Shown here: positions 11,452 through 29,388 of the stretch, in pieces
Numbering within the stretch: position 1 is the stretch's first letter
How the letters are laid out: each line of letters starts with the position of its first letter
DNA from: Candidatus Heimdallarchaeota archaeon B3_Heim
Lineage (GTDB): Archaea; Asgardarchaeota; Heimdallarchaeia; Hodarchaeales; Hodarchaeaceae
DNA length: 32,000 nucleotides
Direction: 5' to 3'
Assembly (NCBI GenBank): GCA_003144275.1
Contig: NJBF01000004.1
Coordinates: forward strand, 60,001 to 92,000
Program-made: the position numbers and the translations under genes
Notes under the pieces: generated by a model
Database searches by the model: none
The model's input: only the letters and a program-made list of their open reading frames with translations
What the model was told of the DNA's origin: nothing

Positions 11452-12420
11452 TTGATGGCAGCAAACACAATGAATATAGATCCTTTTAGTACGAATTCTA
11501 CACTACTGGAGAAATCGACCGAGACTAGTCCATTTTCTTCGACCTTGATCGGATTCTTCTTGTGTTCCTTTGACACAACTTATGGCTTACAAATTCTTTT
11601 TTCTATTCCTGCAAAATTGAAAAAAAACTCCTCAGAACATGATATATTGAAGACACACTATATTTGGAAAGTTGAACATATCCCCATTCCCATTCGTATA
11701 GATCTAAAGATTTCTGAATTTATCTATTCAGCACTTCAATTGATTGGACCTAAATCACATGACGCAGAAGCTACCGTTGAAAAACCGATTTTCGGAATTG
11801 TTTTAAAAATATGGAAGGATGGAGAACATATTCCTCTTGAATTAATTGAACAATTCAGAGACGATCTCCAAATTAATCATTGGAATGACATTGAAATCCT
11901 GTATAAGCGACAAATCCTTGGTTTAAATCCTGCTAAAAGACGTAAATACATACAGCTTTCGGACAAAGTGGCTAAAATCGGAAAATTTCTTCAGACAACT
12001 TGGGAAGATCTAGGAAACAACGTATCCAATACCAAGATGTTCTTTAAAAAACAAAATTTGTCGATTCCCAAATCTTCTGTGTATTCAAGAAGTCAAAAAA
12101 CTCCTGGAAAGAGCTTTTTTAAGGATCCAGTCACAATGCGAGTTTTAGACTCTAAATATCAAAACGATGAGGTTTTAGTAATTTTAGTGAATCAAATGGA
12201 GACATTAGAAGATGTTAAAATCAGAGTGTCTAAAAAGACGGAATTTTTCAGTGAAAATTTATGGGAACAGGATCTTGAGGAATGGCCTACAAAGGAGGAT
12301 CTAATTTTGGAATTTCCACGATCATCAAAATTGGAAAGCTATTTGCTAAAAATAAGTAGCAAAAACCAAACAGTGGCAATTAAATCATTGAATATCGATT
12401 CTACAGATATTAAGTTATAA
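11452..12420 (+). CDS. longin/uDENN-like N-terminal domain protein with C-terminal beta-sandwich-like domain (paralog A)
   Basis: N-terminal IGFFLCSFDTTYGLQILFSIP resembles the hhhhhFD...GP.h...hP start of uDENN/longin (NPRL2/FLCN-type) domains. Visibly paralogous to 12501-13514. Exact start uncertain (TTG 11452, ATG 11455 or 11470). Confidence 0.5.
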   Translation: MMAANTMNIDPFSTNSTLLEKSTETSPFSSTLIGFFLCSFDTTYGLQILFSIPAKLKKNSSEHDILKTHYIWKVEHIPIPIRIDLKISEFIYSALQLIGPKSHDAEATVEKPIFGIVLKIWKDGEHIPLELIEQFRDDLQINHWNDIEILYKRQILGLNPAKRRKYIQLSDKVAKIGKFLQTTWEDLGNNVSNTKMFFKKQNLSIPKSSVYSRSQKTPGKSFFKDPVTMRVLDSKYQNDEVLVILVNQMETLEDVKIRVSKKTEFFSENLWEQDLEEWPTKEDLILEFPRSSKLESYLLKISSKNQTVAIKSLNIDSTDIKL

Positions 12421-12500
12421 AATAGCTACAGGAAAAGATTTAATTTTCAATTTTCTAATGTTTTGTTAATTAATTTGTATTTGAGTATCTATCCTATTAC

Positions 12501-13514
12501 TTGGAGTTCATTTTTTTGCCGAATGGGAAATCAAATCCTATTGATTCATATCACCTTCAAGTAAAAGATCGCTCTTTCGGATTCTTCATTTATTTTTATG
12601 ATGAATTACAAGGTCATTCACTACTGTTTGCCTATCCAAAGGCTCTCATGTCAAGTGAAAACGAAAGGGCCATCTTAGCTATTCACCCAGCGTGGTGGCA
12701 TCAAGATCAATTCCTTAAGTCTGAAAAATTCTCTACAATGGATCTTGAACTTAGTGGAGTGGTATATTCTGCCACTCTCTTCGAATGTGATACACAACGG
12801 TTGAAGAGACGGCCAGGCATGAAAGCAATGAAATGGCAAAAGGAGAGATTTATCCTCATCGTGAAAGCTCCTGAAAAAGTTTCTTTCATTGCTCAAGAAA
12901 TACTCCACGAGTTTCATTCCCAGATAAAGGAAAAATTCAGTAAACATTTGTGTTATCTCGTGCGATTTCAGCTTGAATCGACTAATAAGGCTGAGAACAA
13001 GGACTTTTTACCAGACAACGTTAAATTAGTGGAAGAGGGACTAGCTGAAATTTGTCAATCATTAACTCCTAACACACCAATTAGTAAACTTGAACCTTTA
13101 TTTCATATGGACAGAGAAAGGGAACCTGGCAAAAGGACTACTTTGAACTCTGTACCAAAAAAGAAATTAAGATTCGCGATTCCAAGAAGTAAAGATAGTA
13201 AAATTATTGGCCAGAAAACTTCAGATCATTCTCAAGAAAGTCCAAAATCGATCAAAATTCTATCAATAAGTAGAGGGGAAGATTTAGTAAAAATTTCAGT
13301 AAAAAATACAACTCCTTTCGATCTAAAAAATGTAGTTATCCGAGTCTATGAATCTCATGGTTTCGTTGGTAAAGACAAGAAAGTCAAGAAACTTTTGAAA
13401 TGGGCTCCAAATGAGGTTAGTGAGTTAGAATTTAAACCTGAATTAGATAAAGGGATACGTTACTTACTTAAAATTGAAGATGAAGAAGATAATCTAAAAA
13501 TAAAACGAATTTAA
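12501..13514 (+). CDS. longin/uDENN-like N-terminal domain protein with C-terminal beta-sandwich-like domain (paralog B)
   Basis: FGFFIYFYDELQGHSLLFAYP; shares IL..H..W...DL.+S..+YSA and the C-terminal domain with 11452-12420. TTG start. Confidence 0.5.
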   Translation: MEFIFLPNGKSNPIDSYHLQVKDRSFGFFIYFYDELQGHSLLFAYPKALMSSENERAILAIHPAWWHQDQFLKSEKFSTMDLELSGVVYSATLFECDTQRLKRRPGMKAMKWQKERFILIVKAPEKVSFIAQEILHEFHSQIKEKFSKHLCYLVRFQLESTNKAENKDFLPDNVKLVEEGLAEICQSLTPNTPISKLEPLFHMDREREPGKRTTLNSVPKKKLRFAIPRSKDSKIIGQKTSDHSQESPKSIKILSISRGEDLVKISVKNTTPFDLKNVVIRVYESHGFVGKDKKVKKLLKWAPNEVSELEFKPELDKGIRYLLKIEDEEDNLKIKRI

Positions 13515-20701: not shown

Positions 20702-21613
20702 TTATTCCTCACTACTCATCTCAATCAGTAATTCTGCGAAAATTTCCATTTCTTTTAATAATTCTTGAATTGATTCTGCTGGATCAGCTGGTCCCTGCTC
20801 ATCCATCATCATAAGAACGGTTAACACATAACTAAAAATATGAACTTTCAACTTCTTTACATCTGAGCTAGCTGAGAAAAATGCGGATTCAGATGTCAAA
20901 AAATTCTCACGCAGAACATTGCATGCGAAAATATATTCACGAAGGTCTTCACGAAGCTGAATACCAGTAGCAAATCCTTCGATATTATGTGTAATGACAT
21001 TCCCATTAACATCGGTAATTATAATCTTGGAATTCAATTTCGATAAGTATTCTTGTGCACTTTCAACGCTTTTCTTCAATTCTTCAAAATCTGCGATCAA
21101 AAGTTGCTTTATAAAATCACTGAGTTCTTCTTGTCTATAAACAGAGGTTAAAAATTCACGGGGAGAATATTTAACTATAAATGGAAGCTGTTTGGCTTTT
21201 TTGAGATTTTTTTCAAGAGTAGCTTCTACATAATCTTCTGTATCATATTTATGATAGAAGATTTTCACACGAGGATCTCCGTCTTCTTCTTTAATTGCCG
21301 AATAAACATTATCAAAGTACTCGTTTGCCAAGTCAAAATTCTCAGGGTTATGAAGATCAAGAACAAAAATCAAAATTGATGTATTTGCTAATAACTTTGG
21401 TGTTTCTAAATAGCTTTCACGATATTTTTCTTGGCCTCCAAAATCCCATAATGAAACCTGAATCCCAAGATAATTATGGCTTTTGACCTCATACATAACC
21501 GTAGGCCCAAGATCTTTGACCTCTAGAGGAGTCATTCCTCCGAAAGTTGTCGAGTAGATAGATGTTTTTCCGCAACCACTAAGACCAACTAGTGAGATTT
21601 TCATACTTCTCAT
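20702..21613 (-). CDS. Rag/Gtr-like small GTPase with C-terminal roadblock/longin-like domain
   Basis: G1 GLSGCGKT, G2 GPTV, G3 WDFGGQ, G4 HKYD, G5 TSVY. About 125-aa C-terminal alpha/beta domain (…KIIITDVNGNVITH…). Confidence 0.8.
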   Translation of the reverse strand: MRSMKISLVGLSGCGKTSIYSTTFGGMTPLEVKDLGPTVMYEVKSHNYLGIQVSLWDFGGQEKYRESYLETPKLLANTSILIFVLDLHNPENFDLANEYFDNVYSAIKEEDGDPRVKIFYHKYDTEDYVEATLEKNLKKAKQLPFIVKYSPREFLTSVYRQEELSDFIKQLLIADFEELKKSVESAQEYLSKLNSKIIITDVNGNVITHNIEGFATGIQLREDLREYIFACNVLRENFLTSESAFFSASSDVKKLKVHIFSYVLTVLMMMDEQGPADPAESIQELLKEMEIFAELLIEMSSEE

Positions 21614-24742: not shown

Positions 24743-25009
24743 CTCTTAACTGATTATTTTTTAGATTTTCTGAAAAAGTAGGGAACTACAATACTAGTAT
24801 CAGGTAGTTACAGTAATTCATTATATTCTGAGTATGAGAGGCAATAAGAGAATTCAGGAAGTTAATTCCAAAACTTATTTGTTTAGAATAGGAATTCCTT
24901 AAACAAAGAAGTGTTCGTTAAGACGGAAGATTTATTTGGTCATCCTTAAATTTCCAGTCCTAGAACTTATGACTGAATCTTTTTACTTCAATAACCCAAG
25001 GTCTACACA

Positions 25010-26014
25010 ATGAGTCATTATCTTAAGCAACTAAAGACCCAAAGTTCTCGCAAAATAATACTTTTAGGTCTTTCTCAGGCAGGAAAAACCTCCATACGTG
25101 ATGTTGTTTTCGGAGGCAAAGCACCAGAAGAAACTGCCGATTATGCTGCAACGTTGAACTATGAACGTCAAGTTGAGCAAGTTGCTGATGAGCCTATTAC
25201 AGTGATGGATCTTGGAGGACAGGAAGTTTTTTTGAAACGTTTCCTCAGCAGTATGAGTTCATTCATTTTCAGCAATGTGGCAGTCTTGGTTTTTATCTGT
25301 GATATCTCAACATCTGATAACTTCCCCGCTTCGCTAAAAGCATTCGTCGAAGGCACAAATCGGCTAGAAGAAATGTCAGATGTTCAACCAGCAGTCTATA
25401 TTTTATTGCATAAAACCGATTTAATGCCCGATTTAACTCAAAGAGCAGAAAGAATGGAATTTCTTATGGAGATGTTCCAAACTTCGGTTGTTACAAAAAA
25501 TATTACCTTTTTACAAACTTCAATTTATGATAATTCAATTCATGAGGCATTTAAACGAATTACTGCTGAAGCGAGCGAAATTATTCCTGAAGCAGCTGAA
25601 GTCGAAAAAGAAGAAGACTTAGAAGCTATTCAAAGAAGATTACGGATGCGTCCCATTCAGCAAGTGTTACATGCATTAAAATTCATGAATCGCTTGGATG
25701 ATGTCCTTTTACTATCTACAGTGGAATCCGACTTTATTATTAGTGCATCCGACACAGAAATCAATGAAATTCAACAATTCATAACCATTCTTGATAAATC
25801 AAGAGATTTATGGCTAATTCCCAGTTCGAAATCAGAATTAATGAAAATCGGTAACATCATGTTATTCCGAGCTTCTGTTCCTCCTCATTACTTAATTCTT
25901 CTTGTCTCCTCTGACGAAAAATCCATGTTGGAGACAAGAAAATTGTTAGAAATCGAAGAAACTGTTCGTCTTCTGACAAGTCAACTAGAAAACATGCTGA
26001 AAACACCCATCTAG
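25010..26014 (+). CDS. RagA/B-like small GTPase with C-terminal roadblock-like domain
   Basis: G1 GLSQAGKTSIRDVVF, ATL, DLGGQ..FL, IFSNVAVLVFICD, HKTD, FLQTSIYDNSI. Closely colinear with eukaryotic RagA/Gtr1 motifs. Confidence 0.85.
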   Translation: MSHYLKQLKTQSSRKIILLGLSQAGKTSIRDVVFGGKAPEETADYAATLNYERQVEQVADEPITVMDLGGQEVFLKRFLSSMSSFIFSNVAVLVFICDISTSDNFPASLKAFVEGTNRLEEMSDVQPAVYILLHKTDLMPDLTQRAERMEFLMEMFQTSVVTKNITFLQTSIYDNSIHEAFKRITAEASEIIPEAAEVEKEEDLEAIQRRLRMRPIQQVLHALKFMNRLDDVLLLSTVESDFIISASDTEINEIQQFITILDKSRDLWLIPSSKSELMKIGNIMLFRASVPPHYLILLVSSDEKSMLETRKLLEIEETVRLLTSQLENMLKTPI

Positions 26015-26024
26015 AGGTACCGCT

Positions 26025-26969
26025 TTGCAACAAAACCTAATCATACTAGCTGGCTTATCTCACTCTGGGAAAGATTTGTTATTTAGCCAGATATTAAAAT
26101 TAGGGCGCGCAGAGCCAGGACTGAGACTTCGTGAGAATCTTATTTACTACGAGTGGCTCAATAGATCCTTCAAAGGAAATGAGGATTCATATTTTGAAAA
26201 AGCACTGCCAGCATTGAAAGAAAAATTATACTTGAAAATTAATACACTAATCTATGTCCATGATATTTCATATCAAGTGTTGGATGATTTAGCAAACGAT
26301 TTTAAAGAAGTATATTTCGATATCAAAAAAGTAAACAAAGATTTTCAAGTAATTTTGATAGTAAATAGAGGCCATCTTATCCCAAATGAATTAGAACGAA
26401 CAAAAATTCACAAAAAGGTTGAAAATCATCTCCAGCAACTTATTCCTCAAGAAATTACCTCTTATATTGTCTCTTTGAAGGGTACTGATCAGCAAAGGAT
26501 GACAAATCTTGTTTTTACTCAGATAGCAAATAAGGCAGTGGATTTCACTAAAAACCTTAAGAAAAAACGTGATTCAAGTATAAAAATTCCAAATGATAAA
26601 CAGCTCAAGAAAATTAAAAAAATTCTAAAAGAAAAAATGGACGATTACGGATTTTCAGGTGCTTATCTAATAGGTCACAATCAAGATATTCTGATTGCCG
26701 CTGGAAAAAGTGAGGGGTGGGAAACAAAAGTGGGCCCACAAATTATTCGCATGTTAGCACAGTTTCACGTGTTTGATTTAGGCCCACAATTTCAAGCAGA
26801 CATTATTCGAATTGAAGATTTTGTAATGATTGCTAAAAGGATCAATGCGGAGAATAAAATTATCTTAATTGGAAGGGAATCAATTTTTAAGTACGATGAG
26901 GAACCTTATCCTCGAATAGAAGAAAGTTGTCTCGATATCACAACTGATATTCTAGAAATACTAAAATAA
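26025..26969 (+). CDS. degenerate (pseudo-)GTPase domain fused to a roadblock/LC7-like domain
   Basis: LIILAGLSHSGKD (P-loop, lacking the S/T), no DxxG, NTLIYVHD strand, G4-like NRGH, G5-like VSL. C-terminus ILKEKMDDYGFSGAYLIGHNQDILIAAG resembles a roadblock domain. TTG start with GAGGT SD. Confidence 0.6.
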   Translation: MQQNLIILAGLSHSGKDLLFSQILKLGRAEPGLRLRENLIYYEWLNRSFKGNEDSYFEKALPALKEKLYLKINTLIYVHDISYQVLDDLANDFKEVYFDIKKVNKDFQVILIVNRGHLIPNELERTKIHKKVENHLQQLIPQEITSYIVSLKGTDQQRMTNLVFTQIANKAVDFTKNLKKKRDSSIKIPNDKQLKKIKKILKEKMDDYGFSGAYLIGHNQDILIAAGKSEGWETKVGPQIIRMLAQFHVFDLGPQFQADIIRIEDFVMIAKRINAENKIILIGRESIFKYDEEPYPRIEESCLDITTDILEILK

Positions 26970-26990
26970 TACGAAGAATTGAGTTACTAG

Positions 26991-27806
26991 GTGGAAACCG
27001 TGTTTTCTGGACTAATTGTTACAACCATGGGTGATAAGGGGCCCTACCCACTATTGAATTTATCTTCCATTCCAGAGGACACAGCTGAAAACCTAAGTGT
27101 TATCGGTATGACCATCCTCTTCATGGGAGCAGGAACACTTGCTGAAAGACAACATTATCGTCTACACGGATCACTTCCTGTTCCAAACAATCCGAATATC
27201 GAAGCACTTGCCTTATCCTTTACTGTCTCTCCAACAGAGACATCTGATATTCGTATTGATCAGCATGGACGAGAATCAACCATTTGGCTCCTCTTTAAAT
27301 CAGAAAATCGCGAACGGGTTTTCCAGCTTCACCCTGCTATTGAGCGAGCACTACAGGAAGAGACTAAGAATATTAAAGACGAAAGTGATCTCTCTGATCC
27401 AGAAAAGATGGAAAAAGTTCTATCACGTTTAAAACAAATCACTGAGTCACCAGGTTCTTACGTACCAGTGTCAGATGAGAGTGAACCATCTTACATTCAC
27501 GAAAAGGGAGGTCTTGAGTTCTTCACTGTTAATACTGAAGGCGATTTGAGAGAAATTAATCTTCAAACAGATCTTGCAACACTTCCCGTTCTTATCCTTG
27601 TGAATACACTTCTTAAACGGATTTTCCTAATTAAATTGAAAGATTCTGTGTCCCAACACTTGATGTTTCATGCTGGAACATCAGCTTCTAATATCAATAC
27701 AAATCGCTTTAAAAATAGGTTTTCTATACGAGATGTATTAGATCCAATGGAACGAGCAATGATCTTGGAAAAGATTGGAATAATTCAGGAAATTGGTTCC
27801 CAATAG
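26991..27806 (+). CDS. longin/uDENN-like domain fused to a C-terminal gelsolin-like domain (tentative)
   Basis: N-terminal GLIVTTMGDKGPYPL...HGSLPVP...LALSFTV...SDIRIDQHGR. C-terminal (27510-27806) FTVNTEGDL...VLILVNTLLKRIFLIK...VSQHLMFHAGTSASNINTNRF resembles a gelsolin repeat. GTG start. Confidence 0.45.
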   Translation: METVFSGLIVTTMGDKGPYPLLNLSSIPEDTAENLSVIGMTILFMGAGTLAERQHYRLHGSLPVPNNPNIEALALSFTVSPTETSDIRIDQHGRESTIWLLFKSENRERVFQLHPAIERALQEETKNIKDESDLSDPEKMEKVLSRLKQITESPGSYVPVSDESEPSYIHEKGGLEFFTVNTEGDLREINLQTDLATLPVLILVNTLLKRIFLIKLKDSVSQHLMFHAGTSASNINTNRFKNRFSIRDVLDPMERAMILEKIGIIQEIGSQ

Positions 27807-27821
27807 GAGCTACTACCAGAA

Positions 27822-28754
27822 ATGTCACATTTAAGAAGAAGAAAAAAAGTTTCTAAAGTTCTTATCTTGGGACTAGCGGAATCAGGGAAATCGACTATTA
27901 TAAAAGTAGTCAATGAGGGGAAAATCCCATCAAAAGATGATGATTATAACGCTACAATCGACTACGAGCGTAAACAAAAGGTTGTAGCAGGAACTGAATT
28001 AACAATATTTGATTTAGGAGGGCAGACAGCTTTTCTTGACAGATTCACTGGCGAATTGTCAGAATTTATTTTTACTGGAGTAAAATCATTTGTATTTGTA
28101 GTAGATTCGATTGAAATCAAAAATATTTCACGTGCAAAGTATTATCTAGATTTAGCTGTAAAGAAATTAGCCCAGTTTAGTCCAGAGGCGACCTTATTCA
28201 TTTTCCAGCATAAAGCTGATTTAATCCCGAAAAAAATGAAACAGGAAGTCAGGAAAACAATAGAAGATTATTTAGGATCAGGAATCCCTAAAAAAATTAA
28301 ATATTATGAAACATCAGTCTTCTCTGATTCCATTTTCAAAGCTATGGGTGAAGTCTACGCAGATGCGAGCGGTGCCAGAAAAACTTTACGTCCTCTCCTG
28401 GAGACGTTCATCCAACATAATATGGCTGACATGGCTCAAATATTCACAAAAGAAGGAGCTCCCCTAACTAAAGTTGAAAAAGTGTCGAAATTTGAACATA
28501 TCAATCTATATGAAGTCCGAGAATTTTTCGATGCCGTTGTCAAGCGTTTAGCGGACTCGGAAACTCACACAGCTACATCAACACTTCTCGAATCCGACCA
28601 ACGTGTTTTTGTTATTCGGTTTATGGAAAATGGTTTAGCACTGTTTTTCGGATTTTCAAAAAGTCGACTCAGAGAAAGAAATGAGCCTGTAGCTTCCCTC
28701 TATAACAGAGTTCTCGCATTTAGCTCTCAATTACAGAGCATTACGGAGAGTTAA
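27822..28754 (+). CDS. Rag/Gtr-like small GTPase with C-terminal roadblock/longin-like domain
   Basis: G1 GLAESGKS, ATIDYE, FDLGGQ..F, FIFTGVKSFVFVVD, HKADL, ETSVF. C-terminal alpha/beta domain (MAQIFTKEGAPL…VFVIRF…LALFFGF). Confidence 0.85.
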   Translation: MSHLRRRKKVSKVLILGLAESGKSTIIKVVNEGKIPSKDDDYNATIDYERKQKVVAGTELTIFDLGGQTAFLDRFTGELSEFIFTGVKSFVFVVDSIEIKNISRAKYYLDLAVKKLAQFSPEATLFIFQHKADLIPKKMKQEVRKTIEDYLGSGIPKKIKYYETSVFSDSIFKAMGEVYADASGARKTLRPLLETFIQHNMADMAQIFTKEGAPLTKVEKVSKFEHINLYEVREFFDAVVKRLADSETHTATSTLLESDQRVFVIRFMENGLALFFGFSKSRLRERNEPVASLYNRVLAFSSQLQSITES

Positions 28755-28836
28755 ACGTAAGCTGTGAAAAGCTTGCGGATTTTTGTATCTAAAATCGACT
28801 TAAAACCGACATGTACCTAATATTAATGACCGTATC

Positions 28837-29388
28837 ATGGACTGTAAAATTCTTCATAAGATGTTCGAGAGTAATGAAAAGGGATTCAACCCAAATTTAC
28901 GAGTTCATACACTGGATACTTTATTATCCCTCGGTCAAGTAAGACGGATAACAATTGAATTTCGTAACGATTATTGCGGCCATTCAACAAAACCTAGCCA
29001 AATATATTGGCGAGACATTCCCATTCTCAGAGTGAAATGTCTAGGTACTGAATGTGATATTCGTATTCAGAATAACAAGCAAGAAGTTATCTTTTTTCTG
29101 ATGAAAAATGTAATTAAACTTCCATTTGTCCGATTCATATCAATTCTCTTAGAATTACGTTTACCTAGTTGGGAAACTTTGTACGAATTTGCGTTTGTAT
29201 TGAATTCAGAAGGGAAAATGTTTATTACTCCAACCAGTCATAATATCTCTGCAGTCGATTTGAAAAAACTTACTAAATACGTTACCGCTCAAGCAAGCAA
29301 GAAATTTGAAAAGGAAATTGATGAAGATCTTCTTGACATCCTGCTTCCTGAAACTATACCTCTACGTGATTTCAAAATAAGAATCTAA
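28837..29388 (+). CDS. hypothetical protein
   Basis: 183-aa ORF in the gap between co-oriented genes; no motif recognised. Confidence 0.6.
   Translation: MDCKILHKMFESNEKGFNPNLRVHTLDTLLSLGQVRRITIEFRNDYCGHSTKPSQIYWRDIPILRVKCLGTECDIRIQNNKQEVIFFLMKNVIKLPFVRFISILLELRLPSWETLYEFAFVLNSEGKMFITPTSHNISAVDLKKLTKYVTAQASKKFEKEIDEDLLDILLPETIPLRDFKIRI

Follow-up and report, generated by a model that had tools for sequence, protein, structure and literature searches.

The window analysed here is a stretch of 32,000 nucleotides (C87:60001-92000 in the contig labels of this analysis) of the 3.95-Mb metagenome-assembled genome (MAG) of Candidatus Heimdallarchaeota archaeon B3_Heim, a member of the Hodarchaeales (Heimdallarchaeia, Asgard). 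It harbours a cluster of four open reading frames (ORFs), hereafter called g1 to g4, all co-oriented on the + strand, which code for three Rag-like proteins and a protein combining a longin and a gelsolin-fold domain. The first gene, g1 (25010..26014; 334 residues, ATG start), is predicted to code for an intact Rag/Gtr-family GTPase whose C-terminal domain (CTD) is homologous to that of the g2 product. The second, g2 (26025..26969; 314 residues, TTG start), codes for a predicted Rag-fold pseudo-GTPase with a roadblock-type CTD; g3 (26991..27806; 271 residues, GTG start) for the longin-gelsolin protein; and g4 (27822..28754; 310 residues, ATG start) for a putative RagA/Gtr1-like GTPase with a roadblock CTD. 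An initial annotation, made from the DNA sequence, had described four co-oriented genes with spacers of 10, 21 and 15 nt, and the ORF listing confirmed these coordinates exactly.

A single long non-coding gap adjoins the cluster, the 267-nt intergenic region that precedes g1 (24743..25009, + strand). It contains a T-run 3' of the upstream gene, a member of the Trp/Tyr-tRNA synthetase family, and the promoter of g1 presumably sits within it. At the other end, directly 3' of the g4 stop codon, a terminator-like hairpin with an 8-bp stem and a T5 run (28756..28787, + strand) probably marks where transcription of the unit stops, and the same scan revealed no terminator-like site inside the g1-g4 cluster. 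The Shine-Dalgarno-like motifs reported in the initial annotation are found 8 nt 5' of the g2 start (GAGGT) and 13 nt 5' of the g4 start (AGGAG); those ahead of g1 and g3 are weak. A bacterial-type promoter scan, of no relevance to an archaeon, yielded no excess over shuffled sequences. A search of sequencing runs listed no RNA data; its matches, which shared words in part, were DNA contigs of metagenomes sampled from marine sediment and cold seeps.

The order g1-g2-g3-g4 is retained in 12 genomes of the genus, with protein identities of 73-97% for g4 and 50-93% for g2. The orthologs are named Hodarchaeales and include Candidatus Hodarchaeum mangrovi. The ratios of non-synonymous to synonymous substitution rates (dN/dS) range from 0.01 to 0.16 for g2, g3 and g4. 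Because the order is kept in 12 genomes and dN/dS is low, the arrangement is not due to chance.

The three Rag-like proteins

The g1 and g4 products match the Pfam Gtr1_RagA model (PF04670) far above the Arf, Ras and Roc models, with an E value of 1.4e-33 for g1 (116.7 bits, vs 40.2 for Arf) and of 4.4e-32 for g4 (111.8 bits, vs 53.6 for Arf). Their closest solved relatives are Gtr1, RagA, Gtr2, RagC/D and two Lokiarchaeal Rag-like proteins. Motifs G1 to G5 are intact in both, with GLSQAGKT, DLGGQ, HKTD and TSIY in g1, and GLAESGKS, DLGGQ, HKAD and TSVF in g4. The HKxD residues of G4 are invariant within each of the two families, and RagA and Gtr1 read HKMD at this position in the alignments. 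The Rag-type signatures that had been noticed in genes 1 and 4 (DLGGQ, HKxD and TS[IV]) are backed by the Pfam model and by all top matches in the PDB, which are Rag/Gtr proteins, and by these sequence criteria we assign g1 and g4 to the Rag/Gtr family of GTPases.

Profile comparisons placed g4 close to RagA. The g4 family profile aligns with residues 5-278 of the 313 residues of human RagA (E 1e-32), including most of the roadblock CTD, in agreement with the proposal of such a domain in gene 4. Its matches to RagA/Gtr1 (1e-29 to 1e-33) are well above those to RagC/Gtr2 (1e-15 to 1e-20). The g1 family profile matches Gtr1 over the G domain only (E 5e-22); the roadblock nature of the g1 CTD derives solely from its alignment to g2 with hhalign, and that of the g4 CTD from the RagA profile alignment. 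Eukaryotic Rag sequences were absent from the 120 best relatives of g4 and from the relatives of g1. Because the searches returned no eukaryotic sequences, our GTPase tree is composed of Asgard sequences only.

Both intact GTPases harbour short, basic, Lys/Arg-rich N-terminal extensions ahead of the first strand (25010-25054 in g1, 27822-27857 in g4), with Lys12 of g4 nearly invariant in its family. These extensions may represent membrane-binding or regulatory tails.

The g2 protein reaches the Gtr1_RagA model marginally (23.9 bits, for a cut-off of 22). In a Foldseek search, the first 43 matches of its AlphaFold2 model (predicted local distance difference test, pLDDT, 87.9) were whole chains of RagA/C, Gtr1/2 and LokiRag, the best at 6e-13, and the CTD of the model, with an alpha-beta-beta-alpha-beta-beta-beta-alpha order, matches Rag CTDs and MglB. 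The P-loop, GLSHSGKD, retains the GxxxxGK pattern including the Lys residue, with Asp in place of Ser/Thr. The other motifs have diverged: G2 is lost, with no switch-I Thr; G3 is lost through a deletion at DxxGQ; G4 reads NRGH in place of HKxD; and VSL is found at the G5 position in place of TS[IV]. This pattern of loss is identical in all orthologs aligned, 12 in one alignment and 35 in another. The description of gene 2 as sharing the Rag architecture with a decayed G domain is thus upheld, in that the AlphaFold2 model and Foldseek indicate a whole Rag fold and G2, G3 and G4 are lost. The dN/dS values of g2 (0.05-0.16) show that it codes for a maintained protein under purifying selection and is not a decaying gene. 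On the strength of the model, we classify g2 as a pseudo-GTPase that is a member of the Rag family by fold only.

Compared by hhalign, g2 aligned with g1 along its entire length (Prob 95%, E 2.5e-8) and hardly at all with g4 (Prob 5%). The Asgard tree unites g1 and g2 in one clade (support 95/90), within which the stem of g2 is very long. Because of this full-length similarity and of the clade, we consider that g2 is a highly diverged tandem sister paralog of g1. The homolog search found g2 to be confined to Hodarchaeales. A 575-residue protein (P0341) considered as a possible g1-g2 fusion proved to be a g1 ortholog (80% identity) with an N-terminal extension of ~240 residues unrelated to g2, which may be a gene-calling artefact or real.

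The longin-gelsolin protein g3

As a single sequence, g3 has no match in Pfam, NCBIfam or the PDB, and only family profile and fold searches gave a signal. An exhaustive HMMER search identified only 90 relatives among 1.84 billion representatives; approximately 20 clusters are full-length, and the remainder share the N- or the C-domain only. The AlphaFold2 model, built from a 49-row alignment (pLDDT 91.5), is composed of two domains separated by a disordered linker. The AlphaFold2 model and fold searches define a longin domain (26991..27461; residues 1-157), and profile and fold searches a single gelsolin-fold domain (27504..27794; residues 172-268). The fusion of a longin-like N-terminus to a gelsolin domain, which had been predicted for gene 3, is supported by the model and by both the Foldseek and VIA comparisons.

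Residues 1-157 are arranged in a beta-beta-alpha-beta-beta-beta-alpha-alpha order, with pLDDT values above 90. The highest VIA Z scores were obtained with the Loki roadblock-longin protein (13.7), C9orf72-SMCR8 (12.2), the FLCN complex (11.3) and Lst4 (11.2), followed by the SEA/GATOR1 subunits (9.1-9.6) and by the longins of TRAPP, adaptin, DENND, Mon1-Ccz1 and SNARE proteins (7-8.7). Foldseek agreed, matching the g3 longin with chains of GATOR1, FLCN and the SEA complex. Strand 2 (residues 17-23) opens with a GP motif, G17-P18, which is part of D15-x-G17-P18, and the connection between beta4 and beta5 harbours D86-x-R88 and G93-R94. In the g3 family, G17-P18 and R88 are each conserved in at least 90% of sequences, D86 is invariant and R94 is present in 17 of 19. 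The strands of longin sheets follow the order 2-1-5-4-3, with the beta1-beta2 and beta4-beta5 loops on the same edge. Because these loops share an edge, R88 and R94 should lie near the GP motif, a prediction based on sheet topology.

The GP motif has been reported as specific to the longins of FLCN, NPRL2, SMCR8 and C9orf72, which belong to GTPase-activating proteins (GAPs), where it is found beside an Arg finger (PMC12290439). The same study noted this motif in certain longins of Heimdallarchaeia to which no client GTPase had been assigned (PMC12290439). In the case of FLCN, the longin domain contacts the G domain of RagC with its Arg164 finger (PMC9473554). By its modelled fold and its GP motif, we classify the N-domain of g3 as a GAP-type longin. 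Members of this longin family were found in almost every genome of the class that was searched, and outside the class in only 3 genomes. Two genes located at 11452-13514 of the window and described as longin-like were also considered; comparison of their sequences with the g3 longins revealed no relationship.

The C-domain superimposes on Thor ProGel with a VIA Z score of 11.3 and a root-mean-square deviation of 2.4 Å over 87 of 88 residues, and more than 15 domains of gelsolin, villin, fragmin and severin match it at Z scores of 8.9-9.9. Foldseek gave a TM score of 0.72 by target. In a search of PDB sequences with the g3 family profile, Thor ProGel (7c2f_B) was the sole significant match, at E 0.0022. 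From these comparisons of the model, we assign the C-domain to the gelsolin fold, in which a long and a short helix flank the central sheet. The source genome harbours one actin gene, on contig C100. The Asgard mini-gelsolins (Thor ProGel and 2DGel; 7c2f, 7c2h, 7whf, 7whg) similarly have a single gelsolin domain of ~90 residues; that of g3 differs from them in being placed behind a longin domain and in falling below the Pfam threshold.

Association of g3 with g4 outside the genus, and related genes

Homologs of g3 (31-41% identity) are found directly upstream of g4 orthologs in three lineages, L023, L025/L060 (counted as one lineage) and L027. In L023, a gene for a Rag-like protein of 311 residues lies 15 nt downstream of the gene for the g3 homolog P0003, and one for a Rag-like protein of 993 residues comes next. 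Rag-like proteins of 316 residues are coded downstream of P0006 and in the related locus L060, which belongs to another class, and one of 302 residues is coded downstream of P0012. P0002 has a different Rag-like gene upstream, in a divergent orientation. We also identified a 597-residue fusion protein, P0008, composed of a g3-like region (residues 7-252) and a g4-like region (residues 285-578). In the Asgard tree, the g4 clade (96/88) takes in the neighbours classified as g4 orthologs as well as the C-half of P0008. Within the window, g4 continues the reading frame of g3, with only the TAG codon and five sense codons between them (27804-27824). Because they share a frame with one stop between them, a single substitution removing this TAG would yield a P0008-like fusion.

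The homologs of g1 at 57% identity are found in unrelated gene contexts, and g2 is restricted to Hodarchaeales, from which we infer that g3-g4 represents an old, more widespread core module to which g1-g2 was added in this genus. The initial annotation had envisaged a self-contained, Rag-heterodimer-like machine equipped with its own regulator. Of this proposal, the idea of a dedicated regulator gains strong genomic support from the presence of g3-like genes beside g4 orthologs in three lineages and from the one fusion; that of a uniform machine does not hold, as the cluster appears to consist of two modules of different age, g1+g2 and g3+g4.

Other genes of the source genome combine the same elements differently. 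At C49:19296-23753 (L013:3296-7753), two divergent genes positive for Gtr1_RagA, coding for proteins of 735 and 311 residues, lie beside a gene for a 339-residue g3 paralog in which the longin domain is shared and the gelsolin domain is absent. At C48:41692-44156 (L062), the longin of a 307-residue protein belongs to the same family as that of g3 (hhalign Prob 96.8%), with the motifs DxxGP and D-P-R-I-x-x-x-G-R that match those of the family, and ~300 nt downstream a gene codes for a 411-residue protein with two Pfam gelsolin repeats (1.3e-24) and a Pro-rich linker. Of the 3 relatives checked, 2 have retained this longin-gelsolin neighbourhood.

In total, the genome gives 30 matches to the Gtr1_RagA model. 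A fifth Rag-family gene (window positions 20702-21613, - strand; 303 residues, Gtr1_RagA 1e-22) is located 3.4 kb upstream of the cluster; its product has diverged strongly and forms a long branch close to the outgroup of the tree. A stretch similar to g4 at C4:84072-84683 (- strand; 44-49% identity over residues 29-178) contains in-frame TAG and TAA codons and is probably a decayed extra copy of g4. A separate clade (100/100) groups long Rag-like proteins of 479-993 residues, with an N-terminal Rag G domain and a large uncharacterised C-terminal region; its members, coded at L023:3002-5983, L021:1-1437 and L013:3296-5503, are found near g3-family genes in three lineages.

Downstream of the cluster, g5 (28837-29388, + strand; 183 residues) was considered as a member of the operon and rejected, a terminator-like site being present between g4 and g5. 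This gene is syntenic downstream of g4 throughout the genus and fast-evolving (32-94% identity), and it is not found beside g4 orthologs outside the genus. Its product has no family match, and its Atlas model is poor (pLDDT 0.34).

Proposed regulation of g4 by g3, and its meaning

We propose that the four genes form one transcription unit with two modules, in which g3 regulates g4, probably as a GAP, g1 and g2 pair, and the gelsolin domain provides a link to actin. This composite reading is the one towards which we lean, with moderate confidence. In this mechanism, g4 would be a RagA/Gtr1-like switch with a roadblock CTD, and g3 its dedicated regulator, whose longin domain would dock on the G domain of g4 in the manner of FLCN on RagC. 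Most probably, g3 would stimulate GTP hydrolysis by g4 via R88 (or R94). Its gelsolin domain would couple the switch to actin, serving as the target or as an anchor. As for g1 and g2, they would probably pair via their CTDs, like RagA and RagC, with g2 as the non-hydrolysing half. Functional coupling between g3 and g4 is suggested by the adjacency of their homologs in three lineages and by the P0008 fusion, the GTPases concerned all being members of the g4 clade.

A number of observations weigh against this proposal, in several of its parts. Co-transcription of the four genes is predicted from their spacing only, and g1 and g4 are grouped with the eukaryotic Rags by hidden Markov model scores, not by a tree. 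Regarding the g3-g4 coupling, the P0008 fusion is a singleton found in one MAG (a one-member cluster), and its first GP motif reads GT; moreover, the genes for three more distant proteins of the longin-gelsolin type (26-30% identity) lack a Rag-like neighbour within 1.5 kb. Regarding a GAP activity, the ORF list and Pfam identify one longin gene in the operon and no second longin for a heterodimer partner, whereas eukaryotic GAP longins are heterodimers of two longins with DENN or other CTDs. Besides, most longin domains are guanine nucleotide exchange factors (GEFs) or adaptors, not GAPs. The equivalence of R88/R94 with FLCN R164, NPRL2 R78 or SMCR8 R147 is likewise putative. Finally, the gelsolin domain has no match to Pfam Gelsolin (PF00626) at E values up to 1, and residue 204 of g3 is Asn, whereas Asp occupies this position in the family consensus and in ProGel. 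Complex prediction for g4 with g3 gave an ipSAE of 0.00 in both runs, which speaks neither for nor against binding.

Some of these points are accommodated by other readings. In one of them, g3 would be a non-catalytic scaffold or adaptor packing on roadblock CTDs, like LAMTOR2/3, or a GEF, like TRAPP, Mon1-Ccz1 and DENN proteins; in its favour, the operon is devoid of the second longin that an FLCN-FNIP-like catalytic pair calls for. Longin and roadblock folds do pair; the N-domain of g3 matches roadblock proteins and LokiRag CTDs at Z scores of 7.4-7.9, and its best structural match, 8yqg, is a dimeric longin of unassigned activity. However, the Z scores of GAP-type longins are 2.5-4 units higher than those of GEF and adaptor longins, and the GP motif and a conserved Arg loop have been described as features of GAP longins but not of the longins of TRAPP, adaptin or DENND (PMC12290439). 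We consider it unlikely that g3 has such a role in place of a GAP activity. The possibility that the gelsolin domain has no cytoskeletal link carries a little more weight, although we do not favour it. It might be a protein-interaction or GTPase-contacting module that does not bind actin, as in the COPII proteins Sec23/Sec24; the Arg finger of Sec23 for Sar1 lies in its gelsolin-like domain. Consistent with this, the gelsolin-like domain of Sec23a is among the matches of the g3 domain (Z 8.4, and lower-probability Foldseek rows), which not only fails the Pfam model and has Asn at the conserved Asp position but also is devoid of the W-x-G signature of ProGel in the alignment. Nevertheless, its nearest relatives by profile and structure are the actin-binding gelsolin domains of Asgard archaea and eukaryotes, with ProGel well above Sec23, and a longin of the same family adjoins the Pfam-positive, two-domain gelsolin gene at C48.

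It is also conceivable that the four genes, paralogous and unrelated members of small-GTPase systems, are clustered by descent within one genus, with g1-g2 and g3-g4 independent of each other and not part of a common complex or pathway. The unrelated contexts of the g1 homologs, the restriction of g2 to Hodarchaeales and the occurrence of g3-g4 elsewhere without g1-g2 are in line with such independence, as are the dozens of GTPase genes that Asgard genomes hold, illustrated by the 30 Gtr1_RagA matches in this one. In contrast, spacers of 10-21 nt with no internal terminator-like site, and an order strictly kept in 12 genomes across ~50-97% protein identity, argue for a common unit, and we regard independence as improbable. 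The reading that we retain, namely a g3-g4 regulator-switch module joined by a g1-g2 pair, can be set against known systems.

Relative to the RagA/B-RagC/D heterodimers (Gtr1-Gtr2), the locus shares DxGGQ, HKxD and, for g4, the roadblock CTD; moreover, the tandem paralogs g1 and g2 recall the A/C pair, and the g2 model matches whole Rag chains. It differs from them by three Rag-like genes, one of which codes for a pseudo-GTPase, and by a context devoid of Ragulator, TOR, Raptor or SLC38A9. The solved Asgard Rag-like relatives, LokiRagO/LokiRagM, are a monomer and a homotetramer, according to the PDB titles 8zla/9m28 and 8yl2, unlike the Rag heterodimer. Prometheoarchaeum MK-D1 has Rag-like GTPase-roadblock proteins, and one operonic pair was predicted with AlphaFold2 to heterodimerise via the roadblock domains (PMC10933270). 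The architecture is the same here, and the g1-g4 locus adds a pseudo-GTPase and a putative longin regulator. Tran et al. (2024) reported that, as a rule, genes for GTPases do not share operons with those for roadblock or longin proteins (PMC10933270).

On the longin side, FLCN-FNIP (acting on RagC/D), the NPRL2-NPRL3 subunits of GATOR1 (on RagA/B) and C9orf72-SMCR8 (on Arf) share with g3 the longin fold, the GP motif and a conserved Arg in a loop that in g3 is predicted to lie beside this motif, and are its best eukaryotic structural matches (Z 9-12). As with FLCN-FNIP and GATOR1, g3 is tied to a Rag-family GTPase, in this case genomically. It departs from all three in having a gelsolin CTD rather than a DENN or NPRL-specific one, and no DEPDC5-like subunit is present. 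Asgard longins of the FLCN/SMCR8 type with a GP motif are enriched in Heimdallarchaeia, and their client GTPase was left open (Traffic 2025, PMC12290439). Liu et al. described NPRL2-like longin fusions, and the GTPase of a conserved FLCN-like operon in their study does not belong to the Rag family (bioRxiv 10.1101/2020.10.19.343400). These proteins resemble g3 by their longin class and by their fusion to varied C-terminal domains, but the partner gene of g3 codes for a RagA-like GTPase and its fused domain is a gelsolin. In the literature that we searched, neither a fusion of longin and gelsolin domains nor the association of such a protein with a Rag-like GTPase is described. The new elements here are the adjacency of g3 and g4 homologs in distant lineages, the P0008 fusion, the sister relation of g1 and g2 and the C48 locus. 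We conclude that the cluster is genuine and conserved, probably as an operon, and that it represents a variant of the Rag and longin systems already known from Asgard archaea.

Asgard archaea harbour many Rag-like GTPases and FLCN/NPRL2-like longins, and which of the latter regulates which of the former is a question raised in an earlier study (PMC12290439). The locus offers a clonable pair in this respect, in which a GP-motif longin is tied to a RagA-like GTPase by an operon, by adjacency in distant lineages and by one fusion, and the pairing of a regulator with its switch becomes testable in a prokaryote. It also provides a natural pair of active and pseudo Rag proteins, and the longin-gelsolin architecture hints at a connection between GTPases and actin. 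If g4 is indeed stimulated by g3 as its GAP, the mechanism in which longin GAPs act on Rag GTPases would be pre-eukaryotic. A more far-reaching scenario, which we put forward as speculative and hold to be improbable as it stands, is that the partnership between Rag GTPases and FLCN/NPRL2-type longin GAPs predates eukaryotes, its archaeal form being wired to actin via gelsolin rather than to TOR. If this were true, the ancestral Rag module would have run actin or membrane dynamics, and would have been recruited to lysosomal nutrient signalling later.

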